DNA from: a virus
Taxonomy: Duplodnaviria; Caudoviricetes
Direction: 5' to 3' (one strand)
Length of the DNA stretch: 51,539 bases
IMG/VR virus record: IMGVR_UViG_3300025505_000001
Coordinates: 1-51,539 of that record
Shown: positions 1,487 to 43,263 of the stretch, in pieces
Numbering within the stretch: position 1 is the first letter of the stretch
How the letters are laid out: each line of letters begins with the position of its first letter
Notes under the pieces: generated by a model
What the model was told of the DNA's origin: nothing
Seen by the model: only the letters and a program-made list of their open reading frames with translations
Databases searched by the model: none
Program-made: the position numbers and the translations under genes

Positions 1487-1516
1487 TTGACAGATGGGTT
1501 GTGTGTGTGCTATACT
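1487..1516 (+). promoter_or_regulatory. Sigma70-type promoter
   Basis: TTGACA-18 nt-TATACT with extended -10 TG. Confidence 0.75.
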
Positions 1517-1517
1517 T

Positions 1518-1655
1518 GGGGCGTAAGGCGAGACAGTATGCAACCTCTGTCGCAAGGCACGTTCTCTCGCTAAGCATTAGGGGCCCTGGTCCGGGTTTTC
1601 CTAGACGGCAGTCTAAATGACTGAGGTACATGGGTCCCTAAAGGTTTCAGCCTCC
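1518..1655 (+). ncRNA. Structured leader or small-RNA candidate
   Basis: TTAGGGGCCC/GGGTCCCTAA stem enclosing TAGAC-GGCA-GTCTA GNRA hairpin; lies between a promoter and a terminator-like hairpin. Confidence 0.4.
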
Positions 1656-1664
1656 TCGAAGAAG

Positions 1665-1715
1665 AAATAGCCCTTCAACCCTCGCTTCGCGGGGAACTTG
1701 AAGAGGCTATTTTTG
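1665..1715 (+). terminator. Terminator/attenuator hairpin that sequesters the RBS of gene 1717
   Basis: AAATAGCCCTTCAA...TTGAAGAGGCTATTT ending in a T run, 2 nt before the ATG. Confidence 0.6.
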
Positions 1716-1716
1716 C

Positions 1717-2724
1717 ATGAAGAGAACCCTACTTTCCCTCCTGATGGTGTTAGCGGTGCTGGCGTCCCATCCCGCGAGGGCTATAGCCGTTACGCCGAAG
1801 GCGACTCAAACCATTCAATGGAACATCTCGACCGATAAGTCGGGCCGCCTCGACCACCGATACATCGACCTCGTCTATATGTCGAAGGGAAAGATTGTTG
1901 GCTTCCAACCTCATATTGGCTCTAAGCCGAACGAACGATGGTTCGGGCTTTCAAACTCCGGCGGAGTAGCCCAATACTTTGTGTCGCCGGGGGGCTCCCC
2001 TCTGGGACCTGACATCAGCACAGTGATTGCGTCTTCGACGGGATGCGCCCCGGGATGTGTGAAGGTCGAGGACAACGGCGCAGTAGACGTAACTCTTGTC
2101 GGAGGTTCCATCTCCTTCTCTCTCCCCTTTAGCGGTCTCTCGGACCAGCAAGCCGGAACAACGGGAGCATCCATTGGCTTGATGGGCTACACCGGGGTCG
2201 ACAACTGCGGTTCAGGCTCATCGCCCTGCTTTGACCGACTCCAATCTTCTTCTGGGGCCCTGAACGTATCAGTGCAACAAGGAACATCCACGATTGGAGG
2301 CGTCAACTCGATACCGAAATACCAAGCCTACGGAGCCAAGACCCCTCTGGTCTCCCAAGCCGACTTTGCCGTCAACAACGCTTCCTGTACGGCGGTCGTC
2401 GACCCGGCCTCCTATACCGGAGGAGCCCCAAATACGGGACACTACTGCTGGAACTTCCTGGTCGGGCCCGGCACCATCTACGAGATAACCTACCAGTCCT
2501 TGTCAAACATGAATACCCTCGTGGCTGGAACCACGGTTCAATGCTTCGATAATGCCACGACCAACACAGGTGCAATCGTCTGGGAAGCGATGGCTGGCGC
2601 AGGAGGCTGGCGTCCCTTCGTAGCGCCTTACGGCAGGCCCGTCGTCAATGGCTTGACTTGCATAGCCAACCACGCCTTCGGTGTCGCCGCGAACGACTCT
2701 CTTGAGGTCATCCTGAAGAAATGA
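1717..2724 (+). CDS. Signal-peptide protein with virion-like beta-rich C-terminal domain
   Basis: MKRTLLSLLMVLAVLASHPARA Sec signal (AxA); 8 Cys; beta-rich. Confidence 0.75.
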   Translation: MKRTLLSLLMVLAVLASHPARAIAVTPKATQTIQWNISTDKSGRLDHRYIDLVYMSKGKIVGFQPHIGSKPNERWFGLSNSGGVAQYFVSPGGSPLGPDISTVIASSTGCAPGCVKVEDNGAVDVTLVGGSISFSLPFSGLSDQQAGTTGASIGLMGYTGVDNCGSGSSPCFDRLQSSSGALNVSVQQGTSTIGGVNSIPKYQAYGAKTPLVSQADFAVNNASCTAVVDPASYTGGAPNTGHYCWNFLVGPGTIYEITYQSLSNMNTLVAGTTVQCFDNATTNTGAIVWEAMAGAGGWRPFVAPYGRPVVNGLTCIANHAFGVAANDSLEVILKK

Positions 2725-3812
2725 TTAAACGCTTTGCTTTCTTAGGCCTCGTCGTCCTGGCCGTAGCCGGGTTCGTCCTCAATCCTCTCGGGGGTCCTCC
2801 CCTTCGGGGAAGCCTAGCCCAAGCCGCCGACAGTTGGACCAACACGGGTGTCGCCTTCGACCCTATATCCCTGGCTACGACCGGGTCTGCTCCTCCGGCT
2901 ATCTCCCTGACGGGAGCCACCCCCTTCATCGGTACGACCTCAACGACAGCGGCCCTCGGTGTCTTCTCCGGGGCAACGACGGCTGACGTAGGCGGAGTCC
3001 AGTTCACTTGTGTGGGGTGCACAGCGTCTACGACGGCGGTCACGCACACCGGAGTCCTTGCCATCGTACAGCCTGCCGGAGCCAATACATATAGCCTGGC
3101 CTTCCTCGCCCCGGGAACGGCCTGCACCGGAACGACCGAATGCTTCTCGGCTGTCGCCGTCACGACGAACGGCGGCGTAACCTGGAGCATCAATACAGCC
3201 ACAGCGACCGATGGCATCAACTTCAACCATGCCGTGACGACCAACGGCGGCATCGGCATATGCACCGGACCCAACTCGATTGTCGGCTTCCAGAACGATG
3301 GCTCGAACCGAGGCTCCGTAACCTGCGCGGGTGACTGGAAGTACGGTGGCACATCGACCGGAAATCTTCTGGGGAACGCCAACTCAGGAGGCAAGGGCGA
3401 AATAGCCTCGGGAGGCGCTTCCGCTCTCGGGTCGGCAACTGCCAACACCGGAGACATCATCATCGGGGGGTCGTCCTCGGTCGCTCCTTGCGGAGCCTCC
3501 AACACTTGCGGCGGCCACCTGCATCAACCTGCCAACTTCACTTGTGCAGTAACCCTCGCGGCTGGTGTGTGTGCTACTGGAGTCCCTGAAGCGGTCCATG
3601 TGACCACGTCCACGAACGCCCTCACGACTCTTCAAGTGAACTTCTTGCAAGCGTTCACGAACGCTCCGCTCTGTCATATCCAGGACGAAACGACCAACAT
3701 CACCGGATGGCACGTCGTCATCAACAGCACGACCCAAGTCACCTTTAGCATCGCAGGAGCGGCCATCAACGATACGTTTGACGCGGGTTGCTTCTTGGGA
3801 AACGGAGCCTAA
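2721..3812 (+). CDS. Tail-fibre-like protein with N-terminal signal peptide
   Basis: MIKRFAFLGLVVLAVAG hydrophobic leader; G/T/A-rich; C-terminal VNFLQAFTNAP...STTQVTF...FLG resembles tail-fibre tip domains; 12 Cys. Confidence 0.7.
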   Translation: MIKRFAFLGLVVLAVAGFVLNPLGGPPLRGSLAQAADSWTNTGVAFDPISLATTGSAPPAISLTGATPFIGTTSTTAALGVFSGATTADVGGVQFTCVGCTASTTAVTHTGVLAIVQPAGANTYSLAFLAPGTACTGTTECFSAVAVTTNGGVTWSINTATATDGINFNHAVTTNGGIGICTGPNSIVGFQNDGSNRGSVTCAGDWKYGGTSTGNLLGNANSGGKGEIASGGASALGSATANTGDIIIGGSSSVAPCGASNTCGGHLHQPANFTCAVTLAAGVCATGVPEAVHVTTSTNALTTLQVNFLQAFTNAPLCHIQDETTNITGWHVVINSTTQVTFSIAGAAINDTFDAGCFLGNGA

Positions 3813-6041
3813 ATGCGAAGCGTTGTTAGCCTCTTCGTAGCCTCGGTCCTCTTCGCTGGCATCATGGCCTTTGGGTGTGGCTCTGACCCTTGGAGCAATC
3901 GAGGGTCTTCGTCCTGCTATTCAAACGCTCAAGGCGTCATTGTGTGTTCCGTTTCTCCGCCTCCGGCTCCGAGCCCGCCTGCGGCTTCTCCGGGACTTCC
4001 TTGTACTTACTCCGGAGGGGTCTTCACTCAATCGGGCCTGACTGCCCCCTCTATCACTCAGACGTGTGCGCCTTTTGTGCCCCCCATGCAAACTTCATGG
4101 GGTAAGTCCGGCTCAAAGACCATGCAAGATGCCACCATGAACAAGTTCTTCGTGCTCTGCCGAGACGACAGTGCCGCTATGAACGTCACGGACGCGGCGA
4201 ACTCCGAAAAGTCCTGGGCTCATGCGGTCGGGCGCATCGGCAAGGCCGGATGCTGGGCTCAATACTACACCAACCTGGCTCTAGGCGCAGACTACGTCGA
4301 CGTAGGCTGTACGGGCGTCAACCGCAACGACCATCCTCGGATGGACAACTATGACGTTGCCGCGACCCAAGGCGACTCGACCTTCACGGGCCTCAATATG
4401 TTCCAGCACGACCCGTCGCTCCATCCGTCGCCCCCGACGCCGACTCCCTCTTCGAGCAACCGAAACGGAACCGGAAACGCCGCAGGCTCAAACTGTACTC
4501 GGACGAGCGACGGCGCAATCGAGCACCCCGACCTCGAACAACTCGTCCTCAATCGGACTCCCTACGTCTTCTATTCGGCGCAACTGCGTTGGGGAACCCT
4601 CCTCAACGACGGGGGCATCCTGGCCGCAAACTACAAATGGACTAACACTCCTGCTCCCGGTGAGGCCCCGACGCCATCGCCCATCAACGGAGTCGGCTGT
4701 ACCCTCGTCTCGACGACCGGAGCCTTGACGCCCGATTGTTACTACTCGATTTACGAGGACCAATTCTCTTGCGGAAACGGTCGCGGTGGGGGCGGCGGCT
4801 TGTTCCCTGCCAGCGGACCTCCGGCTTCGATGGAACTCGACCCTACGATGTATGGCTTTGACGGCTACACCGGATGCTTCCCGGGAGTCGAGGCCGACTC
4901 AGCGGCCTTTATGTCGGTGTGGGCACACGCCAAAAGTTGTTGCCCCTTGGGTTCTGGAACCATAGCCCCGTTTTATGTGTGGTATAACGGCATTTCTACC
5001 CTTCTCGACAATACGCCTATCTCGCTGTCGTCGCCGACCGACAACACCACGGGTCACGGCGTCACATGTTCGACCACAATGGTCGGTCCATCAAACGTCA
5101 TGGGAGGAGGCATCGAAGGCGTCTTCCTACACTTTGCTCAGCCTGCGTCAGGCTCTTCCAAACGCGGAGCCAACATCGACACCGCTCCCCAAGCAATAAA
5201 TTGTGTGTCCGACATGGCGGCCCTCGGCAAGGCTACGATTCTCGAATCGTATGACCGCAACACTATCGGCGACCACGAAGACTGGAGAGTCTACGTCGAA
5301 GCGGCCTACCAGGTCGCCTGCGGAGACCTCTTTCAATACTGCGTGTTCGGAGACGACCTCTACGACGGCTCCCAGAATTGTGTCCTCTGCGGCGGCAACA
5401 ACACCGCCGAAGTCCATCCCGAGAATGGCCTCGTAGCCCTCAGTGCCCCCCTGGCGGGCGTCCGTGTAGCCTTCACCGAAGGCGGCGTTTACCCGACATA
5501 CCAAGGAAATGGGTCCTTCTGTCCTTCAGCCGGAGGAGCCTCGGGCGGAGGAGCCGAGTTCGTCGTCCGATGCGGCACCGACATTCAAGGCAATCCGGCC
5601 CCGCTCGACCTCGTCGAGTATTCCTCGTGCTCATACTTCGGAGTCATCATCGGGCCTTGTGGCTTCCTGATAAATCTGACGGACCAAAACCAGACGATTG
5701 TCGGGCTCTCCTTCGGACAGACCTACGCCCATATCGTCGACTGCAACCAAATCATCACGAACGGAAGCACTCAGCCTCAGTGCAATCCCCCGTATTACTC
5801 GGGAAGCACTCCGGCTACGCCCGCTCCTATCGGAACCGACCATTCATTCTTCGACGGAACGGCCAACGGACAGACGGGAGCAGTCATCAACTTCGGAGAC
5901 GGCACTGGCGCTGGCGGCTCTATGTGTTCAACGGCGTCGGCCCCTCATCCCTACGGGAATGTGCCTGCGGCCTGCCCGACCTGGAATCCCTCGTATGTCC
6001 TACCGAAGGACGGCGGTGCCCTCTTCATGTTCCATAACTAG
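3813..6041 (+). CDS. Cys-rich lipoprotein/secreted protein, possible glycoside hydrolase-like depolymerase
   Basis: Hydrophobic leader ending AFGC (lipobox-like); P/S/T linkers; ~29 Cys; spaced acidic motifs (IYEDQF, WYNG, GIEGVF). Confidence 0.7.
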   Translation: MRSVVSLFVASVLFAGIMAFGCGSDPWSNRGSSSCYSNAQGVIVCSVSPPPAPSPPAASPGLPCTYSGGVFTQSGLTAPSITQTCAPFVPPMQTSWGKSGSKTMQDATMNKFFVLCRDDSAAMNVTDAANSEKSWAHAVGRIGKAGCWAQYYTNLALGADYVDVGCTGVNRNDHPRMDNYDVAATQGDSTFTGLNMFQHDPSLHPSPPTPTPSSSNRNGTGNAAGSNCTRTSDGAIEHPDLEQLVLNRTPYVFYSAQLRWGTLLNDGGILAANYKWTNTPAPGEAPTPSPINGVGCTLVSTTGALTPDCYYSIYEDQFSCGNGRGGGGGLFPASGPPASMELDPTMYGFDGYTGCFPGVEADSAAFMSVWAHAKSCCPLGSGTIAPFYVWYNGISTLLDNTPISLSSPTDNTTGHGVTCSTTMVGPSNVMGGGIEGVFLHFAQPASGSSKRGANIDTAPQAINCVSDMAALGKATILESYDRNTIGDHEDWRVYVEAAYQVACGDLFQYCVFGDDLYDGSQNCVLCGGNNTAEVHPENGLVALSAPLAGVRVAFTEGGVYPTYQGNGSFCPSAGGASGGGAEFVVRCGTDIQGNPAPLDLVEYSSCSYFGVIIGPCGFLINLTDQNQTIVGLSFGQTYAHIVDCNQIITNGSTQPQCNPPYYSGSTPATPAPIGTDHSFFDGTANGQTGAVINFGDGTGAGGSMCSTASAPHPYGNVPAACPTWNPSYVLPKDGGALFMFHN

Positions 6042-6481
6042 GGGCGGTCCAGGATGGCGCGGACCTCTTCGAGGGAAGCGCCCTGCGTTTCAAGAACGTG
6101 CCTTAACGACCTGGCGCAAGAGGCGTTCTTTTCCTGTAAAGCGTCACGCTCGGCAAGCAACGTGTCGTAGTGCCCGCCGTACCAATCATCGGCGTGTTTA
6201 ATCTCGGCTTCCAACTCCGCGATCCGTTGCGCGTCAGAGGAGAGAGCGTCGCGGACTTTATAGAGCGTGTCTTGCAGGTCGAGGTTTTTGTAGGCGAGGT
6301 GATGTCCAATCCAAAACGTGACGCGGTTTTCGAGGTCCCCCCGCCCCGACGAAGGCTCCAAGTCCGGTTCCTCGTTGAGTTGAATACCGCCAACGCCTCT
6401 CGGACGCTTTGGGGAGTCGGTGGTGCCCTGGTCGGTCGGCTCGGGCCTGCGTATGAAAGTGCGTTTTTGGTGGATGCTCAT
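6038..6481 (-). CDS. Hypothetical coiled-coil protein
   Basis: ATGA overlap with upstream gene; AQRIAELEAEI heptads. Confidence 0.7.
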   Translation of the reverse strand: MSIHQKRTFIRRPEPTDQGTTDSPKRPRGVGGIQLNEEPDLEPSSGRGDLENRVTFWIGHHLAYKNLDLQDTLYKVRDALSSDAQRIAELEAEIKHADDWYGGHYDTLLAERDALQEKNASCARSLRHVLETQGASLEEVRAILDRP

Positions 6482-6681
6482 TTCTCGCCGTCCTTTTCGG
6501 GTAGGACCCCGCAATTCGCGAATGGGTCATCGAAGCATATCTTGTGCCGGATGACGTGGCGTAACTGCTTCCAGATAGTTTTCGCGGGCGCGAATGGGAA
6601 CGCGGTTCCGCTCCAAAGCAAGGCGTCCGCTTCTTCAGAACATGACGCACCAGCCGCGATTGCTAATTCCGTCCAAGTCAT
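6478..6681 (-). CDS. Hypothetical protein
   Basis: Coupled by 4-nt overlaps on both sides. Confidence 0.7.
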   Translation of the reverse strand: MTWTELAIAAGASCSEEADALLWSGTAFPFAPAKTIWKQLRHVIRHKICFDDPFANCGVLPEKDGEK

Positions 6682-6857
6682 TTACTGCTCTCCTCATGGG
6701 GTAGGACCGGGGCCTCGATAAAGTGCCATCCGCGTCCATTGCAAGACGGGCACACCTTGTCTTGGTCGGCCAAGATAACCCAACGCCAAAAACTCTGGTC
6801 GCGCATCCATCCGCTACCGTGACAAATACGGCAAGTCTCGCGTGTCGGCTTACTCAT
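6678..6857 (-). CDS. DnaJ-type zinc-finger small protein
   Basis: CRICHGSG and CPSCNGRG (CxxCxGxG) motifs. Confidence 0.7.
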   Translation of the reverse strand: MSKPTRETCRICHGSGWMRDQSFWRWVILADQDKVCPSCNGRGWHFIEAPVLPHEESSK

Positions 6858-6875
6858 GGGGTAGGACCGGGGCCT
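6693..6875. repeat. 23-bp perfect direct repeat (6693-6715 and 6853-6875)
   Basis: CTCATGGGGTAGGACCGGGGCCT twice, 160 bp apart. Confidence 0.9.
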
Positions 6876-6978
6876 TGGGTTTGTAGCCTTCACATTCGCG
6901 GCAGAGGTGGTGGCCGTCCGTTATCGTGCCCCACTCGCGACAACCGGGGCAGAGGCCGTATCCCGGCTTGCCGTTCAT
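6850..6978 (-). CDS. Small zinc-binding protein (42 aa)
   Basis: CPGC...CREC; ATGA overlap with upstream gene. Confidence 0.6.
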   Translation of the reverse strand: MNGKPGYGLCPGCREWGTITDGHHLCRECEGYKPKAPVLPHE

Positions 6979-7274
6979 TTGTCGTCCTCCTGGGTACGGC
7001 CCTGAACGACAGCAAGAACGGCGTCCACGACCGCACCCCATACGTCGTCGTTAGAGTCGCCGTTCGGCAGGTAGTATTTATCGCACCATGCCTCACTCGC
7101 AGCGGTTGCCGCCCGCTCTCTGCTCTCTTGGTCGGGCTTCGGCAAGGCGGAGAGATAGGCTTCTACCATTCGTTGAGCAGTATCGTCTACTGACCCAATG
7201 TCGCACGGGTCCACATCATGTTCAAGAACATTGACGGCCGCTTGGAGCGCCGTGGGGTCAAGCCTTGTAGTCAT
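6975..7274 (-). CDS. Hypothetical protein
   Basis: ATGA-coupled ORF starting MTTRLDP. Confidence 0.65.
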   Translation of the reverse strand: MTTRLDPTALQAAVNVLEHDVDPCDIGSVDDTAQRMVEAYLSALPKPDQESRERAATAASEAWCDKYYLPNGDSNDDVWGAVVDAVLAVVQGRTQEDDK

Positions 7275-7591: not shown

Positions 7592-7842
7592 TTGACTATC
7601 TCGATTTTCCCTACCCCTCGGGGAGGAGAGATTTGCTTGACGCAGACGTTTGCGTCGTACCGGGCTCCGGTCTTCACATCGTAATACTTGTCCTCTGTGC
7701 AGATGCGACCAGAGTTATCGACCTTCTGCGCCTTCGGCGGAGACTGGTGGAGGCTTGGATAAGCCCCCACCCTCACACCGACCAGGAAGGCGGCCATCAC
7801 GCAGAGGACTGCGATGAGGACGTACAATCCTGGGCCGCGCAT
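7588..7842 (-). CDS. Membrane-anchored hypothetical protein
   Basis: N-terminal TM LYVLIAVLCVMAAFLVGV; TAATG coupling. Confidence 0.65.
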   Translation of the reverse strand: MRGPGLYVLIAVLCVMAAFLVGVRVGAYPSLHQSPPKAQKVDNSGRICTEDKYYDVKTGARYDANVCVKQISPPRGVGKIEIVK

Positions 7843-8513
7843 TAGAAGTGTATCGTCGCGGAGACGCCGTATCCCAGTTTGCCGAAGCCTGGCTTCTGGA
7901 ACGTCTCGGTCTTGTAGAGCCATCCAGCCTGGGCGTTCAGCCCTGTATGCGAGATGGGAAAGGAGAGTGTAGCGACCGGAAGGGTCTGTAGATACGGCAG
8001 AGCCGAATCATCGTGACGGACCCGAGAGGTCTCCGAATGACCGGAGAAGCGTTCATCTCCGGCGATGCCGACGCCTGCTCGTAGACCTCCGAAGAGGGCT
8101 ACGTTGTATGTCGCTGTAGCGTTGAATCTGGAGAGCAAGCCCAACTGGAAATTGGGTCCTCGTTCGTTCGGCTTCGCCGAAGGAGCCGTCGCCAGCGTTG
8201 TCGGAGCATCCATCTGGATTGCCTGCGTAGCAGGGAGCGTGCCCTCAGCCGTGTCGAGGTCCTCGCATCGGACGCCTGACAGAAGCAGCCAGTTCGCGAG
8301 TTGTGCTTTCGGGACAACGTGAACGGACATCGGGGCGATGCGGCCTATCGGCGAAGCCGAGTTGTTGACGATGGTTGTGATGCCTGTGTTGGCGTCGATG
8401 TCGCAATCGACAGCCGGAAGAGGCGCGGCCTGGACGACGGTATGCCACGAGGCTACCATCGCCATGACTACGAGGGCTTCAGCGACAGCCCGAATGACGG
8501 TTCTCTTTTTCAT
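7842..8513 (-). CDS. Outer-membrane beta-barrel protein candidate
   Basis: Signal peptide; amphipathic beta strands; C-terminal beta-signal YGVSATIHF ending in Phe. Confidence 0.65.
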   Translation of the reverse strand: MKKRTVIRAVAEALVVMAMVASWHTVVQAAPLPAVDCDIDANTGITTIVNNSASPIGRIAPMSVHVVPKAQLANWLLLSGVRCEDLDTAEGTLPATQAIQMDAPTTLATAPSAKPNERGPNFQLGLLSRFNATATYNVALFGGLRAGVGIAGDERFSGHSETSRVRHDDSALPYLQTLPVATLSFPISHTGLNAQAGWLYKTETFQKPGFGKLGYGVSATIHF

Positions 8514-9955: not shown

Positions 9956-10282
9956 CTAGAGAGAGGCGACCAACGCCTTCAGACCAGCGACCAACTTGGC
10001 GTACTTCGCCGAGTCACCGTTCGAGGAGTCGGCCTTCGGCTGGACCTTGTAGTCCGACGCGTCGAACTTGGAGCCGTTGTGCCCCTTGAAGCGGAGCGAA
10101 CCGTCCGTCTTCGAGATGCAGGTGACTTCCTGCGGGCCGTTGACGGGACGCCCGTTGACGGAGTCGATGGTGCGCCCCTTCTTCTCGATGACGATGTCGC
10201 CTTCGGCGGGCGTTCCGCCGCCGTTGTAGTTGGACTCGAAAGTCCCTGCTGCCTTACACATAATGGATAGGTACCTTTCCAT
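9956..10282 (-). CDS. Hypothetical protein
   Basis: GGAGG RBS; strongly biased codon usage. Confidence 0.75.
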   Translation of the reverse strand: MERYLSIMCKAAGTFESNYNGGGTPAEGDIVIEKKGRTIDSVNGRPVNGPQEVTCISKTDGSLRFKGHNGSKFDASDYKVQPKADSSNGDSAKYAKLVAGLKALVASL

Positions 10283-10404
10283 GAGACTACCTCCGAAACC
10301 CCGGAGGGGGGAATGGGTCATGCTCCGGACTTGGGACCGGACGCTGGCACATTACACCCCTTCCCGAAAGGGGAAGGAAGGGGTGCCCTCTGTGAGAGGC
10401 TGGT

Positions 10405-11133
10405 TCAATCTCCTTCGTGCTGATGCAGATGGTAGGGGTACCCGATGGCCGGGTCCCGATGGTGGTCGCCCATACCGGAACGCTCCCAGGCTCCGTCATC
10501 GAGAAGCGGATTGTCCAGGCGCTCCGAATGAAGCCGAAGCAACTGCCCTCCTCCGGAGGAAGAAGGCTGAGGTCTCGCAGAGACCGGAAGTCTCCAGGAC
10601 TCCAGACCTGGCTCTTGGTCTTCAGGGCCGTCCCATTCGACTACATCGTCCGGAAGCATGATGTAGCCAGGCTTGAGAGCCTTGCTTCCCCATGTCGCCA
10701 GTTTGATGGAGCCCCGACCGACCTTGAAGAGCGTCGGTTGCCAAGCCGCGACAACCGGAGTCGGATAGAAGTCCTCGAAGCACTTGACCTTGGTGTCCTC
10801 GAAGTCTGCCATCGCCAAGACGAATTGCATCTTCGCGGCGGCTCCCTTCGTCGTCGAATGTAGATGGACCGGAGTTTCGTGGTAGTATTTGCCGAGGCAC
10901 CCCAGGGCATGCGCGACATAATCGCCGTTCACGTCCTTGAAGCCCATGTGGAAGTCGAGCCATATCTCCTCGAAGAATGGCCGGGCTCCGGCTTCGGAGG
11001 TGTCGGTGACGGACTGACCTAGGAGGATGATGGCATCGACCGGGGTCGAAGCCCACACGACCTCGTCGTCCGGACGAGCCGCCTTCATGCGCTTCATCCG
11101 GTCTTCGCGGTCGTCAACGAGTAAGACTATCAT
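10405..11133 (-). CDS. Cyclic-phosphate-processing receiver-like domain protein
   Basis: LLVDDR, EIWLDFHMG, NGDYV, VHLHS motifs typical of this phage receiver family. Confidence 0.65.
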   Translation of the reverse strand: MIVLLVDDREDRMKRMKAARPDDEVVWASTPVDAIILLGQSVTDTSEAGARPFFEEIWLDFHMGFKDVNGDYVAHALGCLGKYYHETPVHLHSTTKGAAAKMQFVLAMADFEDTKVKCFEDFYPTPVVAAWQPTLFKVGRGSIKLATWGSKALKPGYIMLPDDVVEWDGPEDQEPGLESWRLPVSARPQPSSSGGGQLLRLHSERLDNPLLDDGAWERSGMGDHHRDPAIGYPYHLHQHEGD

Positions 11134-11624
11134 ACTGATGCTCTCACTTTCCAACCGAGGTCACTCGGCTCCATGTACGCAGTAACCAAGACTCCCTGTC
11201 CCTTCTCTTCGCACTCGTTGGAATCGGTGTCTCGGATGTCGGCTTGGGCGACGAGGTCGCGAAACACTCTTCGGTGCTTCACGACCTTTTTGCCATCGGC
11301 GGTCGTATCCGTCTCGCTGTACTCCAGACGAGCATAGACCGTCTTGAGGAAGTCATGCTGAGCCTGAGTCATGCAGTACCGATTGCCGCAGATATGCAGA
11401 GCACGGATATCGGCTTTGTCGACTCGAATCCAGCCCATCTTCTCCATGACGGTCGAGGATGCTATGCGAAACATCTCGCATATCTTGAGGGCGACTACGT
11501 CGTGCTGACCTCCGCTTGATGGGACGAACCAGAGTTCGCCCTGAGGAGAGAGCCAGCCCCATTCGGTTCCGCCGATGTCCTTGCGAGTCTTCTTGACGAG
11601 GCGGAATGTCGGTTGTTTTGGCAT
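11130..11624 (-). CDS. Hypothetical protein, paralog of 8794-9252
   Basis: GWLSPQG...H...GWIRVD...HICG motifs. Confidence 0.75.
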   Translation of the reverse strand: MPKQPTFRLVKKTRKDIGGTEWGWLSPQGELWFVPSSGGQHDVVALKICEMFRIASSTVMEKMGWIRVDKADIRALHICGNRYCMTQAQHDFLKTVYARLEYSETDTTADGKKVVKHRRVFRDLVAQADIRDTDSNECEEKGQGVLVTAYMEPSDLGWKVRASV

Positions 11625-16560: not shown

Positions 16561-16727
16561 TGTCATCCATATGGTTCTCAGCCTCCACCTGCCAAGACCC
16601 AGCCTGCGGCTGGAAAGAGCCCTGGTCCGTTGAACTGGCCCGCGTCGCCGACAACACCAAGGAGCACCGCGCCACGACCGGACACGTCGTCCTCATCGAG
16701 GACCGAAAGAAAGAAACCATTGGCTAA
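16560..16727 (+). CDS. Small zinc-binding protein
   Basis: TAATG coupling; CQDPACGW...H...GH. Confidence 0.6.
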   Translation: MSSIWFSASTCQDPACGWKEPWSVELARVADNTKEHRATTGHVVLIEDRKKETIG

Positions 16728-17031
16728 CACCTACATCCCCTACGGGAGCCGGGTCGTCGTTCGGTCCGACCCCCCTGCGGATAAATCTACGGGAGGAATC
16801 TACATCCCCGATTACGCAGTAGAGAAGGCCTCCTCTCGGGGAACCGTTATGGCTGTTGGCCTAGGGGAACTTCGGGAGGATGGTACCCGCGACCCGATGC
16901 CCTTCGCCGATGGCGACGTGGTCTTCTTCCAGAAGGGCGTTGGCATGGGCTTGGTCGAGGGTGACTCCAAGACCCTCATCCTCGACGTTAAGGAAATCGT
17001 AGGGATAGATGAAGCCAGCCTGGCCGGGTAG
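16720..17031 (+). CDS. groES: GroES-like co-chaperonin 1
   Basis: PYGSRVVV, KSTGGIYIP mobile loop, GTVMAVGLG, GDVVFF. Confidence 0.9.
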   Translation: MANTYIPYGSRVVVRSDPPADKSTGGIYIPDYAVEKASSRGTVMAVGLGELREDGTRDPMPFADGDVVFFQKGVGMGLVEGDSKTLILDVKEIVGIDEASLAG

Positions 17032-17344
17032 AGTCGTCCTAGAAATCCTCCCTGTCGGAGGCACCAAGGGCGGCATCTACGTCAACAAGAACGAGAAGAA
17101 GCCTCACGTCAAAGGCATCGTAGCCCTCGTCGGACACGGCGTCCGCGAGGACATCCAGGTCGATGACTGGGTCATCTTCTCCCGATACTCCGGACTTCCG
17201 TTCGACTTCGCCGACGACGACAAAGAGTACCTAATCTTCAATGAAAAGGATATCTGGGTGAGAGTAGAACCACCGACCTGCCCTCATGGGGTAGACCTCA
17301 AACTAGAGTGCCCCGACTGCACTCACGGAGACGAGAATGCCTGA
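17009..17344 (+). CDS. groES: GroES-like co-chaperonin 2 with C-terminal Cys/His tail
   Basis: TKGGIYV, GIVALVGHG, VIFSRYSG, EYLIFNEKDI; tail CPH...CPDC. Confidence 0.9.
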   Translation: MKPAWPGRVVLEILPVGGTKGGIYVNKNEKKPHVKGIVALVGHGVREDIQVDDWVIFSRYSGLPFDFADDDKEYLIFNEKDIWVRVEPPTCPHGVDLKLECPDCTHGDENA

Positions 17345-27395: not shown

Positions 27396-28010
27396 ATGGC
27401 CGCTCTCGCCCTCCAACCTCCCAAACTTTATATGCCGGGTCAGGGCAAAGAGCCCGACATTTTCCCTTATGGCATTACGACTGCCGCACTCCCCGCCCCG
27501 AATACGGGCGTGGCTCCTGCCGCTGGCGACCTGACTACCCTCGATAGCGCGGGCAACGCGCAAGCCTCTCTCGGTACAGCCGCCGTCAACTGGACCTCCG
27601 CCGTATCTGGCTTTATCATCGGTATCGCTCAGCACGGCTCTCTCGATATTCCCTACACGGGACAGGGTGGTAACGTCGCCATCACAGAGACGGCGTTGTT
27701 CGGTGCTTCTCCGATGCCTGCTAACTCAGGCGACTTCAATGATGTCCACGTCATCCAAGGCCATAACGGGCAACCCTTCGTCTTCTCGCTCGTAGAGGCT
27801 TGGGCCGCGAACCTCGTCGGCACGACCACCTACATCAAGAAGGATGCCACGACTGGCTTCTGGGTCTTGACTACGACCATCGGTGGTGGCGGAACGAAGG
27901 CCGTCCAGATTACTGGCAAAGTCCTCGGCGTCAACGCAAACGTCGGTACGATTGGTGATACCGGGTCTCTTGTCTACGGTTCGTTCTTACCTGCCGTGTT
28001 GGCAAACTAA
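27396..28010 (+). CDS. Capsid decoration/cement protein candidate
   Basis: G/A/T-rich beta protein directly upstream of the major capsid gene. Confidence 0.6.
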   Translation: MAALALQPPKLYMPGQGKEPDIFPYGITTAALPAPNTGVAPAAGDLTTLDSAGNAQASLGTAAVNWTSAVSGFIIGIAQHGSLDIPYTGQGGNVAITETALFGASPMPANSGDFNDVHVIQGHNGQPFVFSLVEAWAANLVGTTTYIKKDATTGFWVLTTTIGGGGTKAVQITGKVLGVNANVGTIGDTGSLVYGSFLPAVLAN

Positions 28011-29003: not shown

Positions 29004-29531
29004 ATGGCACTCACCGTTCCGAGCAAGACCAAGAACAAAAGCCACGACACCCATTCGGTGCAGTACGACGCGGCCTTTACTCTCCAGTTTGGCAACTTCG
29101 CTACACCGACCGGAGTCATCGCGAGTACGGCTATCCAGGCCCAGTATCTCTTGGGTTACTCCACGAAGATTCTGGCCGTCAAGGTCAACGCTGATTCCAT
29201 CACCAATGCCGCTGGTACCTTCGCCTTCAACGTAGCCGCAGGACTCGTTGCAGAGACGGGCGTCTCGCCCCTCAACGATGCGATTGCAACAGCGGGCCAG
29301 AGCATCTTTGCGGCAGACCAAATCATCGCCGTACAGGTTGCCAACGCTACACAGACCTTCGTTCCAGACCAACCGGACGCAATCTGGCTGGGCGGAACGC
29401 GGCTGACTCTACGATTCACGGTCGGAGCCGGAGGCTCAGGAGCGAACGTCACCGTAGCCTTGCTCTGCAAGACCTGGGACAACAAGGGTTCAATCAGCGT
29501 ACCAATCAACTTCGCGACAGACCTGGCATAA
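29004..29531 (+). CDS. Virion structural protein
   Basis: Beta-rich ORF after the capsid gene. Confidence 0.65.
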   Translation: MALTVPSKTKNKSHDTHSVQYDAAFTLQFGNFATPTGVIASTAIQAQYLLGYSTKILAVKVNADSITNAAGTFAFNVAAGLVAETGVSPLNDAIATAGQSIFAADQIIAVQVANATQTFVPDQPDAIWLGGTRLTLRFTVGAGGSGANVTVALLCKTWDNKGSISVPINFATDLA

Positions 29532-29534
29532 CCG

Positions 29535-30020
29535 ATGGGTCGTGCAAGTGGCGCAGGGGTACTCCGAGTCCCGAATACAGGGCCCCTGTATCTACTCAAG
29601 CAGGTCGCAACGAACGTCACCATCGGAGGTGCCGTTCAGCCCGTCGTGCTGATGAAGGACGCTCGGGGCTTTAGCCACTGGACGTTCCAACTTGACCCCG
29701 AAGGAACGACGGTCAATGCTACCATCAACGTCTACGGCTCCAACGACATACGTCTTTGGGGTGGACCGCTTCGGACGACAATGCAGAGTGGTGGAACTGG
29801 AAACGCCCTCCAAGATAGCATCGACTCCGGCTTGGCCTTCAGCACCCAAAACATTCCTCCCGCAGGACTGAACGTCGACACCTTAGCGAACTGGACCGTC
29901 AATGGAACGGGTCCGTTCCAGACCATCGTTTTCCTGGGGCCTCTCGTCGGAGTCTATGCTACAATCACTAACTGGGTTAGTGGAACCATCTCAGTAACAG
30001 GAATGGCCGTCCCCTCCTAG
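29535..30020 (+). CDS. Virion structural protein
   Basis: Beta-rich ORF in the head module. Confidence 0.65.
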   Translation: MGRASGAGVLRVPNTGPLYLLKQVATNVTIGGAVQPVVLMKDARGFSHWTFQLDPEGTTVNATINVYGSNDIRLWGGPLRTTMQSGGTGNALQDSIDSGLAFSTQNIPPAGLNVDTLANWTVNGTGPFQTIVFLGPLVGVYATITNWVSGTISVTGMAVPS

Positions 30021-30053: not shown

Positions 30054-30866
30054 ATGGCATCCACAAACGTCACCACCGCATACGTCCTGGCTACCCTCCG
30101 TAATGCTCTCGCTGAGCAGAACTCCACAGGCCGTTGGACAGACCCTCTTCTCCTGAACTGGGTTGACCGTGCCCACAAGGCTCTCGTGAAGAGAGTCTTA
30201 TGGCCGTCTACAACGAACTTGATTTCCTTACAAAACGGGATAGCCACTTACGATATGTCAAGTGACACATTCTTTCCGGCTGGGATACCGCTTCGTATCC
30301 TTCGCATTACAGTGGGTGGGCAAGTCTTGGTTCCCACGACAATCGACATCATGGAGGGAACCCAGACCGATACCTTCGATGATTCCTTTACCCCGACGAT
30401 GGGCACCCAATGGGAAGCCCAAACCCCGCAAACCTATCCCGTGATAACGAACTCGGGAGACGGCCCCATTCCCCAAACGATATGGTCCGCGAACAACGGC
30501 CTTCAACGGCCTCGCTACTACATCCAAGGGCCGCTCTTGGGTATCATCCCCACCCCATCGGGGACCCCGCTCGCCCGCATCTGGAATGTTCCCTCTCCGG
30601 TTACGCTGACGAATGGAGCGTCCGAGACCCTGTTGTTCCCCGACATCGCGACGGACTATGTCGTAGCCAAGGCTCTTGAATTCGCCTATAGAAGCGACGG
30701 AGACAACGACACCGCCAACAACCAACGCTCGATTGCCAAAGAAGAAGAGAGCGAAGTTCGAGAATGGATTCAAGGTCTCCAAGGCGACTTCGGAGAGAGG
30801 CCCCACCCCTGGACGTATCGTAACGGTTTCCAAGGCGGAAGACCCTATCAACGTGGGGGCTGGTAA
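30054..30866 (+). CDS. Head-tail adaptor protein
   Basis: RWTDPLLLNWVDRAH; LGIIPTP; YVVAKALEFAY pattern of podovirus adaptors. Confidence 0.75.
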   Translation: MASTNVTTAYVLATLRNALAEQNSTGRWTDPLLLNWVDRAHKALVKRVLWPSTTNLISLQNGIATYDMSSDTFFPAGIPLRILRITVGGQVLVPTTIDIMEGTQTDTFDDSFTPTMGTQWEAQTPQTYPVITNSGDGPIPQTIWSANNGLQRPRYYIQGPLLGIIPTPSGTPLARIWNVPSPVTLTNGASETLLFPDIATDYVVAKALEFAYRSDGDNDTANNQRSIAKEEESEVREWIQGLQGDFGERPHPWTYRNGFQGGRPYQRGGW

Positions 30867-32782
30867 TGGCTAGTCGTACCCGCCAATCGGAACTTTCTGA
30901 TAATCAACTGCTTCTCCAGATAGGTCCGGTCGTTGGCGTCGACAACACGACCGACCCCTTTCTGCTGGATGAGCAAAGTCGCCCCATTAATGCTAGTGTC
31001 GTTGACATGTCGAACTTCGTTCCCAATAGGACGTATGGGTCCTTGACGACCGGGCAGGGGCGAACTGCCGCCTTGGCGAGTGCCATCCCCAACTGCTCGC
31101 AAGTCCTGGCTATTACGAGGTTCTTCACCGGGACGGGAACTCCGAAACTTCTGTTCGCAATCAAGACGACGGGCAACCAACTGGCCGTCTACAAGGCCGT
31201 ACCCGCAGGAGCCCCCGCACTACTCTTCTCGATAGGAACTGGAGGATTGCCCCCGACTAGAGCGCGGTTTGAAATCTACCAGAATAATTGCTATCTGTCC
31301 TACGGCCCCACGAACGGTGGATTCTCGGGGACAGGACCTCTTCGGATTGATACTTCCTTAGTCCAAAACAACTGGCAAATCGGCGCTCCCCTCAATGTCC
31401 TAGTCTTCCCCGTTCAAACGGGCGGGGGAAACCTAACGGGGGACTACTACTGGCGCTACACGTTCTCCAGCGCCGAACAAGAATCCAGCCCGACTGATTT
31501 CTTGGGAGCCGTCACGTTCGCTGGACAGTTCGCGGCTCTTACACTTCCGACCGCCTCAGCCGACCCACAAGTTTTACACATCAATATATACCGAATGGGA
31601 GGCTCCTCGTCCTCCTGGCTTCAGGTCGCCCAAGTTGCAAACGGGACGGCCACTTTCAACGACAACGTAGCCGACAACAAAATCGGAAATGGGACTCCGC
31701 TAGGCAACACTGGACAGACCCTTGTCGTCCATCGTGACGTACCTCCGTCCTTCAGGGACATGGAGATTTTCCAGGAGAGGCTTTGGGGCTGGACCGATAG
31801 CGTCGACAACGGTGGTATTCCTCCGGGGACCCCCTCGTCCCAATCGTCCTTATGGCAATCCAATCAGTTCGAATCTTGGGGATTCGACAACGTCGATAAC
31901 ATCGAACCTATCTCCGATAACCCAGGCTCTGCCAACACCAACCCCCCTGGAGACGTCGGCATAGCCCTGGCAAAAGTTGGCGGCATGATGGTCGCCTTCA
32001 AACTCAAGAGCACCTGGGCCGTTATCGGTAGTTCTCCGGAAGACACGACGTATCAGCGGCTGTTTGATATCGGTTGCATCTCGACGACCGCCGTCACCAA
32101 GGGTGGCGGGGGGCTGGTCTTCTGGCTCTCCAAGCAAGGTGGGTTCTCGTTCGACGGGACCGACGCTCCTTCAGAGACGACTAAAGACATCAAGACATTC
32201 ATCGACTCTCTAGCGGTGGCCGACTTCCAGGCCGCCGTGGGATTCTTCAGGGACCAGATTTGGTACCTCAGTTTTCCTAATCAGGGAGTGACTTGGGGTT
32301 ACCTCCTCAAAACTCAGAAGTGGCATAAACTCCCGTATGCCCTAGACGCGGTGTACTTCGATGCTGAGACCTTCGAAGTATTCGGTAGCGTTCCGGGCAC
32401 AGGCACCATAAACTCCTGGTTTCAAGCCGAGACGGACCTCGGCAATCCAATCGTCTCGACCTTGACTAGCAAAATCGAAGATAGCGGAAATCCCGAATTC
32501 GCTAAGGACTACAACTTCCTTCTCATCGAGGCTCCTGTTCAAACGGGCACTCTCTCCGTCACGATTGCTCCAGACCCTGGGAGGGCTGGCGGGCCCGCGT
32601 CCACAACACTCAACGTCGATTTGTCCTTGGGGCCGAGACAACTTCTGTCCTTGCCATCGACAATGGTCGGGACCTCGGTTCAACTTAGCCTCTCGATGAC
32701 CTCGTCCGCCAAGACAACGATTAGCAAGGTCCGTCTCTACGGTACTATCAAGAGAGAGTTCATCGGAGTGGGGCCAGGCTAA
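30866..32782 (+). CDS. Tail nozzle / stabilisation protein (P22 gp10- or T7 gp12-like)
   Basis: 638-aa beta-propeller-like; FQERLW, DIGCIS, VFWLSKQG motifs; follows the adaptor. Confidence 0.8.
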   Translation: MASRTRQSELSDNQLLLQIGPVVGVDNTTDPFLLDEQSRPINASVVDMSNFVPNRTYGSLTTGQGRTAALASAIPNCSQVLAITRFFTGTGTPKLLFAIKTTGNQLAVYKAVPAGAPALLFSIGTGGLPPTRARFEIYQNNCYLSYGPTNGGFSGTGPLRIDTSLVQNNWQIGAPLNVLVFPVQTGGGNLTGDYYWRYTFSSAEQESSPTDFLGAVTFAGQFAALTLPTASADPQVLHINIYRMGGSSSSWLQVAQVANGTATFNDNVADNKIGNGTPLGNTGQTLVVHRDVPPSFRDMEIFQERLWGWTDSVDNGGIPPGTPSSQSSLWQSNQFESWGFDNVDNIEPISDNPGSANTNPPGDVGIALAKVGGMMVAFKLKSTWAVIGSSPEDTTYQRLFDIGCISTTAVTKGGGGLVFWLSKQGGFSFDGTDAPSETTKDIKTFIDSLAVADFQAAVGFFRDQIWYLSFPNQGVTWGYLLKTQKWHKLPYALDAVYFDAETFEVFGSVPGTGTINSWFQAETDLGNPIVSTLTSKIEDSGNPEFAKDYNFLLIEAPVQTGTLSVTIAPDPGRAGGPASTTLNVDLSLGPRQLLSLPSTMVGTSVQLSLSMTSSAKTTISKVRLYGTIKREFIGVGPG

Positions 32783-33348
32783 TGGCAATTCTTCCTCATA
32801 TCGAGAACCCGCCTCCCGGAAGAAGTCTTCGTATCTGGACTCCTGGAAAGGGCTGGACGACAGCAAACGTCTCGGGCTTCGCCACGAATCCTACGGTTGC
32901 CGGGAACCAACCTCAGCCTCGTCCCGTCATTGGGAACGACGTGCAGACCGTGACCATCCATATTGCGGCCATCGCGGGTAGTTCAGGACAGCAGTTTACG
33001 GGGAGTGTCACGTTCCCTAACATTCCTCCGTTCAAGCCCAATCATCAGGACCAGGCTCTCTTTCATGTCTACCCAGTTCATCATCCTCAACTCCCGGCTG
33101 GCGTTGCCTACCAGGGGTTGGAGATACGCCCCAGGGCTTCTCAGAACTTGGGCGGTCCGTCGCTGACGGGAGGCTTTACCAGCCCGAGCGCCCCGTTGGA
33201 CCTTGTGGGGGGGCTATCCCCCGGGATAACATACCAGGGATTTTCTGCTGATATCATAGTTACAGGGCTAAACACACAACTTGTCAACTCCATAGGAACA
33301 GACGTGGTCTTCGTTTTTGGGGCCCACATCATCAACCGAACAGGTTAG
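32782..33348 (+). CDS. Tail-associated hypothetical protein
   Basis: TAATG-coupled to the nozzle gene. Confidence 0.65.
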   Translation: MAILPHIENPPPGRSLRIWTPGKGWTTANVSGFATNPTVAGNQPQPRPVIGNDVQTVTIHIAAIAGSSGQQFTGSVTFPNIPPFKPNHQDQALFHVYPVHHPQLPAGVAYQGLEIRPRASQNLGGPSLTGGFTSPSAPLDLVGGLSPGITYQGFSADIIVTGLNTQLVNSIGTDVVFVFGAHIINRTG

Positions 33349-34351: not shown

Positions 34352-35734
34352 GTGGCTGACTCTACGCCAGAGCAAGCAGGATGGGGCGATGTCTGGAACA
34401 CAATTACCCAGGCTATTAAACACGCCGAAGGCACCGTCGACCACGCCCTTCAAGGGCATCATGTAGACTCCCTCTTCAAGAACTCTGACATCTACGGCCC
34501 CTCTTTGAGAGCGGCCTTGCCTCGGCACACCACGATGGGCCCTCAGCCTTCGGCTGATTACGGGCTGACGGGCCTTCCTGGCCCGAAGGCCAAGGGCTCG
34601 ATACCCGGAGCGGCAGGGCTTCTCGGTGACGCGGCCTCGATGATTCCCGGGGGACCCGGCCCGGAGTTCGAGGCCCCTCGAATCATCGCAAGCACCGAGG
34701 ACTGGCTGAAGCACGTCGCCAATCTGAAGAAGCAGTTGGGCACACGAGACCTTCTCCCGGGCTCAACTGGTTCGATGCAGGCTATCATAAATCACATCTC
34801 TAATACCCGAGACCCGGGTACCAATGTAGGAGGCATGAATGCATTTCTTAGCCAGGCTATGAGACTCGTCAACCAAACTAAAGCCCACATGGAAAACGTC
34901 CTCCGAACAACCCCCAACCGGGCTAGAATCTTGATTGAAGATTTGGAGACGGCCCTCCCCGTGATAGCCAAGACCAAGAAGTCTCTGCCTAAAGTCACGA
35001 CCGCTACAGGAGCCTTCAAACTCCTCCAAAAGGCGGGCTCGGATTTGGACCCGGTCCTTCACGCACAAATTATGGCTAAGAACGCCCTCCTGGGGTCAGT
35101 CGGTAAGGACGCCGCCAAGCAAGGGGCCGCTAATCTGGACTTCGCTCTCGACGAGAGGGCCCGAGCCAAGGCGGCTCTGACAAAGGCAACGGACGCCTCA
35201 GAGTTGGTCCCCTTCATCGAATCGACGCGCCGTGCTCCGTACCCGGGGGGGCAAGAGAATATCCTCGACCCTGAACTGCACGAAGCCTTGCTCAAGAAGT
35301 TTGATTTGCTAAGTGAGGTCGGTGAGCACCAAGGGAAGGCTTTCGCGAAGAACTTAGACAGTGCGCTCCTCACTCGGGCTCGGGCGCTGGAGCACTTGCG
35401 GAAACCTGCAAGCACTCCGGACCAATGGAGGACTGTAAGCGGCAACCTCAAACACTTGGACCCAGATGTCTACAACGCTTGGCGGCAACATGAAGCGATG
35501 GGACATTCCAACAATAATTTCCTGACTCCCGGCGAGTTCTCTCGAAGCCGTAACCCGTTCGAAGCATTCTCGACGACGGAGTGGCCCCCGTATTCTGAAG
35601 AGGCGGGGATAGGGATGCCCAAAGATGTATGGCATCATGGCCTAGAAGAGCGAACTCAAATGGACCTGATGAGACTCCTCCAGCAAATCTCCGCTAAGCA
35701 AGGCCTCAAGGACCTCCCCGGAGGCGGCCTCTAA
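34352..35734 (+). CDS. Internal virion protein candidate
   Basis: 460-aa helical ORF in the ejection module. Confidence 0.65.
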   Translation: MADSTPEQAGWGDVWNTITQAIKHAEGTVDHALQGHHVDSLFKNSDIYGPSLRAALPRHTTMGPQPSADYGLTGLPGPKAKGSIPGAAGLLGDAASMIPGGPGPEFEAPRIIASTEDWLKHVANLKKQLGTRDLLPGSTGSMQAIINHISNTRDPGTNVGGMNAFLSQAMRLVNQTKAHMENVLRTTPNRARILIEDLETALPVIAKTKKSLPKVTTATGAFKLLQKAGSDLDPVLHAQIMAKNALLGSVGKDAAKQGAANLDFALDERARAKAALTKATDASELVPFIESTRRAPYPGGQENILDPELHEALLKKFDLLSEVGEHQGKAFAKNLDSALLTRARALEHLRKPASTPDQWRTVSGNLKHLDPDVYNAWRQHEAMGHSNNNFLTPGEFSRSRNPFEAFSTTEWPPYSEEAGIGMPKDVWHHGLEERTQMDLMRLLQQISAKQGLKDLPGGGL

Positions 35735-42966: not shown

Positions 42967-43037
42967 TTTGAGTGGAGGGAATTGAACCCCCGACTGATGG
43001 TCCCAGGCCACCCGCGTTACCACTACGCCACACCCAA
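42967..43037 (-). tRNA. tRNA-Pro(UGG)-like, atypical, no encoded CCA
   Basis: Cloverleaf: TTGGGTG/CACTCAA acceptor; GCGT/ACGC D arm; GGTGG-CCTGGGA-CCATC anticodon arm; GGGGG-TTCAATT-CCCTC T arm. Confidence 0.8.
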
Positions 43038-43211: not shown

Positions 43212-43263
43212 GGGTTGGCCCTCCTTCGGAGAGATACCCATGTGGACTTTGTAGGTGTCGGGA

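Follow-up and report, generated by a model that had tools for sequence, protein, structure and literature searches.

The subject of this study is a group of three genes, here called g1, g2 and g3, carried by an uncultured tailed phage (Caudoviricetes) whose genome is deposited as IMG/VR record IMGVR_UViG_3300025505_000001. The whole record, 51,539 bp long, is referred to as the window. The genes and the elements that precede them are the following:

1487-1516, plus strand: sigma-70-type promoter-like site (TTGACA-18-TATACT; 11 of 12 consensus matches; TG of an extended -10)
1517-1716, plus strand: structured 5' leader between the promoter-like site and g1
1717-2724, plus strand: g1, 335 residues, 8 cysteines, Sec-type signal
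2721-3812, plus strand: g2, 363 residues, 12 cysteines, exported or membrane-anchored
3813-6041, plus strand: g3, 742 residues, predicted lipoprotein, 28 cysteines plus Cys22

The three co-directional open reading frames (ORFs) extend over 4.3 kb, that is, 8% of the genome, and their GC content and GC content at third codon positions (GC3) are the same as in the rest of the genome. The end of g1 overlaps the start of g2 in an ATGA, the TAA stop of g2 abuts the ATG of g3, and the three genes are translationally coupled. An earlier note, made from the DNA sequence alone, had described this region as a separate operon, and the promoter-like site of its own at 1487-1516 bears this out.

Export signals were called by a sequence-pattern heuristic that looks for a basic n-region followed by a hydrophobic h-region of about 7-15 residues or more. 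Each of the three N-termini shows one or two Lys/Arg and then an uncharged hydrophobic stretch of 17-24 residues, and a basic and hydrophobic N-terminus was found in 12 of 12 sequences (seven of the g1 family, two of g2 and three of the g3 family). The signal of g1 consists of MKR plus 17 uncharged residues, with ARA at positions 20-22, and is of the typical Sec type. According to the type I signal peptide rule, the small-x-small (AXA) site is placed 3-7 residues past the h-region. In g2, where MIKR is followed by 24 uncharged hydrophobic residues, the AQA site lies about 15 residues beyond the hydrophobic core, and for this reason the protein may be membrane-anchored instead of cleaved. The N-terminus of g3 contains MAFGC, with the cysteine at position 22, followed by a Gly/Ser- and Pro-rich stretch (a putative tether), and its homologue P0009 shows ILAC with the lipobox cysteine likewise at position 22. 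Both AFGC and ILAC match a permissive PROSITE-type lipobox pattern and not the strict one, [LVI][ASTVI][GAS]C. Going by these patterns, g1 is most likely soluble and g2 either soluble or N-terminally anchored, while g3 would carry an acyl group on Cys22, with the Pro-rich linker as its tether. The exact coordinates and the N-terminal patterns thus agree with the earlier description of three coupled genes that all start with signal peptides, the third with a lipobox-like AFGC.

Among the rough gene calls of the window, the only other basic-then-hydrophobic N-terminus belongs to the minus-strand gene 7842-8513. It encodes 223 residues with 2 cysteines, its C-terminal half is beta-barrel-strand-like and ends in ...TIHF, and a family match was not found. 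From these features the product may be a phage-encoded outer-membrane protein.

A recount of the cysteines gave 8 in g1, 12 in g2 and 29 in g3 (28 plus Cys22 of MAFGC), the same numbers as had been counted earlier, and the close pairing reported at that time also holds, the spacings within consecutive pairs being mostly short (4, 7, 20 and 39 in g1; 3, 6, 21, 6, 9 and 39 in g2). Altogether, g1-g3 have 49 cysteines in 1,440 residues. In 16 structural-module proteins, which add up to 6,684 residues, there are 22 (Fisher p 1.6e-21, odds ratio 10.7), and five of these 16, including one of 1,392 residues, have none.

Even cysteine counts and the gain or loss of cysteines in pairs are expected of proteins oxidised outside the cytoplasm. 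The numbers of mature cysteines in the seven sequences of the g1 family (alignment A1) are 8, 8, 4, 4, 2, 6 and 6, all of them even, as they also are in both g2 sequences (12 in g2 itself) and, once the lipid-modified cysteine is set aside, in the three sequences of the g3 family (28, 28 and 26). Within the g1 family every sequence has C224 and C244, P0005 has other residues in place of C276 and C315, C110/C114 are jointly present in three sequences and jointly absent from the others, C164/C171 are jointly present in two sequences, and one further close pair is peculiar to P0006. The g3 cysteines specific to this phage also come in pairs (376/377, 503/510 and 523/526), and the pair 606/616 corresponds to 600/619 in P0009. 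Because the counts are even and the changes pairwise, we take g1-g3 to be oxidised outside the cytoplasm. Having in view as well the signal-type N-termini in all 12 sequences and the tenfold cysteine density, it is very probable that the three proteins are exported and disulfide-bonded, as the earlier note had suggested.

Very few relatives of these proteins were found. Searches of g1-g3 and five homologues against Pfam, PHROGs and NCBIfam gave no match, the sole hit being a BNR/Asp-box in g2 with an E value of 0.13. There was likewise no match to g1, g2 or g3 by tblastn in 50,697 phage records, no confirmed relative in IMG/VR scans with g1, g2, g3, the helicase and the terminase, none confirmed in a metagenome-contig scan and a genome-contig scan, and none in one genome per species of 185,579 species. 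For g1, six relatives were found on contigs of 3.7-56 kb, and in this family the C-terminal part is conserved, the N-terminal and middle parts being variable. For g3, a HMMER search of 1.84 billion representatives returned only the protein itself, P0009 (41% identity, 904 residues) and a fragment of 202 residues; in the same set, no g3 homologue was detectable for the phage-sized contigs carrying the g1 family. For g2 only a 93% twin was found, by a word-indexed protein search and tblastn on phages, in which distant relatives may be missed. By these searches, g1-g3 constitute three families to which hardly any of 15 billion proteins is related.

A related phage contig, from run X2, is colinear with the record, and the g1, g2 and g3 proteins of the relative are intact, with 98%, 93% and 98% identity, respectively. 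The segment 1801-6075 shows 185 differences and 2 gaps between both phages (95.7% identity), in comparison with 164 differences (89.2% identity) in 1-1516, which includes the neighbouring helicase gene. The last aligned base of the block 1-1516 coincides with the -10 hexamer; after it, 1516-1637 and 1723-1801 cannot be aligned at 80% likeness, 1637-1723 aligns, and beyond 6075 the alignment becomes mosaic, with segments replaced. In this alignment the breaks on either side of the conserved block (1516 and 6075) fall at the limits of the operon, which is the behaviour of a cassette.

The changes within the genes are unevenly distributed. The g1 of the relative has 26 residue changes, 19 of them in the first 28 residues and only 7 in residues 29-335, so that the predicted signal peptide appears free to vary and yet stays a signal peptide. 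The g2 of the relative has 27 changes, 23 of which fall between residues 67 and 253, and its g3 has 16 changes in 742 residues, with all 29 cysteines retained. Since there are around 47 residue changes in the mature proteins for the 185 nucleotide differences of 1801-6075, most of the latter are silent, as expected if g1-g3 are real genes on which purifying selection acts. In run X2, one contig carries a 1-nt deletion at 4964, within g3; an intact g3 of 742 residues with 98% identity (P0012) is found on a contig of 34,437 bp.

The whole window was scanned for sites that agree with the sigma-70 consensus at 10 or more of its 12 positions. Nine sites were found, eight of them with the extended -10 TG, and seven of these eight are located ahead of co-oriented genes and follow the pattern TTGAC[AG]-N17/18, TGnTATNNT. 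Besides the one at 1487-1516, the TG sites are:

8612-8584, minus strand: promoter-like site TTGACG-17-TATCAT, ahead of the exported outer-membrane-protein-like gene 7842-8513
12714, minus strand: promoter-like site ahead of a co-oriented gene
15726, plus strand: promoter-like site ahead of a long rightward unit running into the structural genes
28105, antisense within the capsid gene: promoter-like site, the eighth with the TG
45668 and 50922, minus strand: promoter-like sites ahead of replication genes
50864, plus strand: promoter-like site ahead of the Prim-Pol gene

On the plus strand of the structural block (20-42 kb) no site with at least 10 of 12 matches was found. The seven near-consensus sites, as putative promoters, define the transcription units of the phage, the operon included.

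The leader is predicted to be highly structured. Its minimum free energy (1523-1725) is -78.6 kcal/mol, with a z-score of -3.86, and only 1 of 200 shuffled sequences was as stable. It ends in a hairpin at 1655-1722 (stem 1663-1712, 22 pairs), with -28.3 kcal/mol, a z-score of -4.58 and none of 200 shuffles as stable. The stem has an A-tract on its 5' side and a U-tract on its 3' side, ends 5 nt before the ATG of g1 and contains the only Shine-Dalgarno-like motif, GAAGAGG. Comparison of the leader with Rfam gave no match at E ≤ 1. Hairpins of -24 kcal/mol or below were found in 67 windows across the whole plus strand, too many to define terminators by themselves. The hairpin 1663-1712 has the look of either a terminator or a mask of the ribosome site, so that entry into the operon is probably regulated.

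The composition of the three proteins is similar, with 45-57% of G/S/T/A/N and 5.5-11% of charged residues (57% and 5.5%, respectively, in g2), and their folds could be approached with low confidence. Profile searches against the Protein Data Bank (PDB) were empty or insignificant. AlphaFold2 gave an unusable model of g3 from a 3-row alignment, with a predicted local distance difference test (pLDDT) of 28.1, and a model of g1 from a 7-row alignment with a pLDDT of 35.2, in which only residues 242-334 reach 50-60. The C-terminal domain of g1 (around 203-335) is predicted to be all-beta, the modelled part being a beta-sandwich of low confidence. When this low-confidence model was compared by Foldseek with the PDB, there were no matches at E ≤ 0.001, the top ones being generic beta-sandwiches; with BFVD, the same poor model gave four matches at E ≤ 0.001, two of them collagen-like and to the disordered part. 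The compact BFVD neighbours of the low-confidence C-terminal domain are small uncharacterised Caudovirales proteins, with template modelling (TM) scores by target of 0.5-0.59. A trimer prediction for this domain scored 0.04 against a mark of 0.42, which is evidence neither way. For g2, the nearest neighbours of the low-confidence ESM Atlas model are tail-fibre/Peptidase_S74 proteins, with TM scores of 0.36-0.41, all below the tool's bar. The tail-fibre, decoration and depolymerase-like domains that had been ascribed to the operon in the earlier note therefore found no support from any family, solved structure or confident fold.

Kinship among the three proteins was also considered and rejected, as hhalign probabilities were 0.2-0.9%. 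A motif common to g1 and g2, C-x2-3-D-x-TTN-x-TG, together with the 39 spacing of their last two cysteines, was discarded as well (Smith-Waterman z 0.37, with 661 of 2,000 shuffles scoring as high).

The structural module of the phage bears on the function of the operon. It comprises genes for a terminase, an SU10-type portal, a capsid protein, an SU10-type adaptor, a nozzle or 'stabilization protein'-like product and a series of large ejection-type proteins, the portal and the adaptor matching SU10 Pfam families. In SU10, according to the available text of its description (PMC9509320), the genes of the long fibres (gp12 and gp13) and the short fibre (gp16) are located between those of the adaptor (gp11) and the nozzle (gp17), the two proteins on which the fibres dock. 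Here the adaptor gene (30054-30866) directly abuts the nozzle-like gene (30866-32782), no fibre family of PHROGs or Pfam was matched among the structural ORFs, and the 1,392-residue structural protein had no match, so that the absence of a recognisable tail fibre pointed out before is confirmed. It does not follow from these missing fibres that g1-g3 take their place, as a phage of such divergence may have fibres that escape recognition. Four small, low-charge and cysteine-free ORFs of the structural block (27396-28010, 29004-29531, 29535-30020 and 32782-33348) could be fibre candidates.

The interpretation that we favour, and to which we give a little less than an even chance, is that the operon is an accessory cassette with no part in the virion, whose products work in the host envelope, either the periplasm or the outer membrane, with surface glycans or receptors as their target. 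The three proteins are very probably made from their own transcription unit, cross the inner membrane by Sec and become disulfide-bonded outside the cytoplasm. There they would jointly target some component of the infected cell's surface, g3 as a tethered glycan-cutting enzyme of the TIM-barrel type and g1 and g2 as beta-rich binding partners. The outcome would be a surface polysaccharide or receptor either stripped or masked, which would prevent superinfection, keep the progeny from re-adsorbing to debris and ease their escape from the matrix. Read-through into the genes would be regulated by the leader with its terminator-like hairpin. This accessory role is preferred because of the separate promoter, the predicted lipid anchor of g3, the reversed conservation of g1, the occurrence of g1 homologues with no detectable g3 homologue and the conservation of the block. 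It resembles the alternative that the earlier note had offered, that is, the remodelling or masking of the host surface, which fits better than a role as fibres and is equally unproven.

A number of results weigh against an envelope-acting cassette, or against parts of it. Apart from this phage, just one close relative was found to have the three genes together, and neither a fold, nor a family, nor a catalytic motif is established for any of their products. Promoter-like sites are overall no commoner than in shuffled sequences (7 vs 6.0, 3 vs 5.7 and 8 vs 6.1), so that the argument from promoters rests on the quality and the placement of the seven sites described above. The hairpin before g1 might be a sign of late expression that depends on antitermination, and the picture of an early accessory function would then be weaker; the SU10-like tail without identifiable fibres leaves some room for a role in the virion, small as its likelihood is. 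As for the enzymatic part, among the 30 ESM Atlas clusters nearest to g3, PF14885 (GHL15) occurs in 28 and the top score is 0.92, a value to be read in view of the shuffled proteins that reach 0.9 in 4-10 of 100 cases. The Atlas's own model of g3 (pLDDT 0.31) gave TM scores by target of 0.66-0.68 to GHL15 and other TIM-barrel proteins, and several GHL15 proteins of Chloroflexota are lipoproteins or exported. The hidden Markov model (HMM) of PF14885, with a cut-off of 27 bits, did not match g3 or P0009 at E ≤ 1-5 nor the six frames at E ≤ 10. When the g3 family (A2) was compared by hhalign with a GHL15 profile of nine proteins from Chloroflexota and Actinomycetota genomes (A4), the probability was 1.15% and the E value 0.046, the g1-family control (A1) reaching 1.2%; a reversed A4 control scored 15.5 vs 24.3. 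A greedy hhalign alignment of both families was colinear over 389 columns, with several short motifs in register, and was not significant. That g3 is a TIM-barrel glycan hydrolase is thus roughly an even bet and not a finding.

Three other explanations were weighed. The earlier note had proposed that g1-g3 are the receptor-binding apparatus, exported, folded and oxidised in the periplasm and joined to fibre-less SU10-like particles at lysis, and this we consider unlikely. It would account for a phage with an SU10-type portal and adaptor and nothing between the adaptor and the nozzle-like gene, and it agrees with the fibre-like composition of g1-g3, with the tail-fibre/Peptidase_S74 proteins near g2 in the Atlas, below the tool's bar as they are, and with the likeness of the C-terminal beta domain of g1, in its low-confidence model, to small uncharacterised Caudovirales proteins. 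However, the operon lies outside the structural block, beside the Prim-Pol/helicase gene, and its promoter is of the host-type class common to the replication units. The predicted lipid anchor of g3 would leave this protein tethered to a membrane, g1 is conserved at its C-terminus and variable at its N-terminus, the reverse of the usual layout of fibres, and g1 homologues occur where no g3 homologue is detectable. Host-range genes are usually the most variable ones, whereas between both relatives conservation is highest in the operon, and the small cysteine-free ORFs of the structural block could supply the fibres. A full-text literature search turned up no description of Sec-exported fibres of tailed phages in the texts that it covered, which is not proof that none is in print.

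Slightly less probable still is that g3 is an exported muralytic hydrolase, a lipoprotein that waits in the envelope for lysis to be triggered, g1 and g2 being its accessory or regulatory partners. Control by disulfides is known from Lyz of phage P1, and the genome has a gap that such an enzyme would fill, as GH24 (lysozyme), SLT, Amidase_2 and GH19 were all absent in a six-frame search of the whole genome and no endolysin-like ORF was found among those scanned with Pfam or PHROGs; this six-frame search did not cover Amidase_3, GH25, GH108, M15, M23, NlpC/P60 and CHAP. We know of no exported endolysin like g3, with its 742 residues and 28 cysteines, and its assignment as a glycosidase is unproven. 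Moreover, the operon lies around 12 kb along the circular map from the holin-like gene (42568-42930). In the accessible parts of the sources, exported endolysins do exist (PMC7143992; 10.1101/2025.11.12.688109), and the TIM barrels of GHL type include the GHL10 domain of the cell-surface glycoside hydrolase Cwp19 (PMC5765458). We give an equally low likelihood to auxiliary or moron cargo, by which secreted proteins that degrade or bind polysaccharides would feed the cell or alter its adhesion without taking a direct part in the infection cycle. The own promoter and the discrete boundaries of the cassette are compatible with it, as is a peat or soil source, soil viruses being reported, in the texts available, to carry glycoside hydrolases. 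Nevertheless, one preprint ascribes, in its available part, most carbohydrate-active enzyme annotations of soil viruses to entry or lysis and not to metabolism. A six-frame search found no tyrosine or serine recombinase (integrase/resolvase) in the genome, which together with a full set of replication genes leaves no prophage stage where a moron pays, and neither the GC and GC3 of the operon, equal to those of the genome, nor the lack of homologues in one genome each of 185,579 species favours a cargo of this kind. Morons of temperate phages are characterised by a promoter and a terminator of their own, an atypical composition and expression from the prophage; of these features the operon shows the promoter-like site.

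The record itself is rated 100% complete by CheckV. Its ends (1-186 and 51354-51539) form a direct repeat with 83% identity, an ORF with a Prim-Pol domain exits at the 3' end, and a helicase-like ORF enters at the 5' end. The repeat and the ORFs that cross both ends imply that the genome is circularly closed or terminally redundant. At the junction, which falls within the Prim-Pol/helicase gene, the assembly mixes two strains, in such a way that the record is closed but chimeric. The replication genes encode a DNA polymerase A, exonucleases, a Sak4-like annealing protein and the Prim-Pol/helicase; no RNA polymerase gene was recognisable among the ORFs scanned, and the phage is probably virulent. 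Compared with the terminases of 50,697 deposited phages, its own reaches no more than 22-24% identity. The sequence words of the genome are present in a peat metagenome run, a possible source of the phage, and 46% of them in a soil metagenome run; no RNA run was among those listed for the operon.

Other features of the window are the following:

6478-7041, minus strand: three tandem small ORFs with a repeated 31-nt junction element (68-74% identity); two end in ...VLPHE and two have CxxC-type motifs, and the related contig has a replaced or mosaic sequence here
10325-10394, minus strand: twister-P5 ribozyme (RF02684; 52.3 bits vs a gathering score of 37.6), between the ORF 9956-10321 and the cREC_REC-like ORF 10405-11154
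16630-17031 and 17009-17344, plus strand: tandem Cpn10 (GroES-type) genes, with E values of 2e-17 and 1e-11
35734-37056, plus strand: ATP-grasp protein (GARS_A-like, E 6.8e-8), whose gene has ejection-protein genes of the structural module on both sides
42568-42930: the holin-like gene
42967-43037: a single tRNA-Pro gene
43038-43355, minus strand: HTH_17/MerR-type DNA-binding protein of 105 residues, at the start of the leftward replication unit and adjoining tRNA-Pro

The phage Cpn10 shows 30-40% identity to the bacterial Cpn10 of ten genomes across phyla, and does not discriminate the host.

Few phage proteins are known to use host export, and most of them are small (exclusion lipoproteins, spanins and exported endolysins). 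In the present case, a probably virulent phage gives 8% of its genome to three large, disulfide-rich and exported proteins in a discrete cassette, which also offer three new protein families for structure determination. Should these proteins strip or mask surface glycans from the side of the periplasm or the outer membrane, they would represent a novel type of receptor destruction or exclusion among soil phages that inhabit polysaccharide matrices. If the operon supplies instead the missing fibres of the SU10-like tail, it would open an extracytoplasmic branch in the assembly of tailed phages; the route for this, in which fibre-less cytoplasmic particles meet the Sec-exported g1 and g2 and the lipoprotein g3 only when lysis breaches the cell, seems improbable to us.

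In comparison with known systems, the operon proteins share with the tailspike, capsule and exopolysaccharide depolymerases a low-charge composition rich in Gly/Ser/Thr/Asn and a presumed surface-glycan target. However, depolymerases are cytoplasmic trimeric beta-helices encoded in the tail module and normally without signal peptides, whereas the proteins described here are exported and encoded outside the tail module. Exported endolysins (Sec or signal-arrest-release) and spanin lipoproteins likewise use the host Sec and lipoprotein pathways and act in the periplasm, as far as the available texts go, but they are small, belong to known families and are found in lysis cassettes, in contrast to g1-g3, which have no family match and lie far from the holin-like gene. 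In two-component spanins, the gene of the small o-spanin lipoprotein is embedded in or beside that of the i-spanin within the lysis cassette, according to the accessible text of PMC6139136. A two-component spanin was rejected for the operon, as its size, gene layout and position do not fit. The GHL15 family, the language-model nearest neighbour of g3, has members that are often exported or lipoproteins; g3, however, is around twice as long, is rich in cysteines and has no HMM or significant profile-profile match to it. The GHL families other than GHL1 were uncharacterised as of 2017, as stated in the available part of PMC5765458.

The tail of SU10 (Kuravirus) has in common with this phage the portal and adaptor families and the nozzle-like gene that follows, and differs in the long and short fibre genes placed between adaptor and nozzle, where this phage has nothing. 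As regards the leader only, the late PR'-tR' leader of phage lambda, which yields the 6S RNA and is subject to antitermination by Q, combines a strong constitutive-type promoter, a leader of around 200 nt and a terminator-like hairpin right before the operon, as found here; no Q-like gene was identified in this phage, and its hairpin may only mask the ribosome-binding site. Llp of phage T5 is a single small lipoprotein of less than 10 kDa, whereas the operon encodes three proteins of 335-742 residues and 8-28 cysteines without sequence relation to it, g3 with its 742 residues not being of the Llp/Cor type. Llp and the Cor proteins of phages phi80 and N15 are, in the available text of their descriptions, phage-encoded lipoproteins expressed early and exported, which block the phage's own receptor from the periplasmic side of the outer membrane (10.64898/2026.03.26.714494; PMC9586334), and a comparable, exclusion-like function is possible for the operon.

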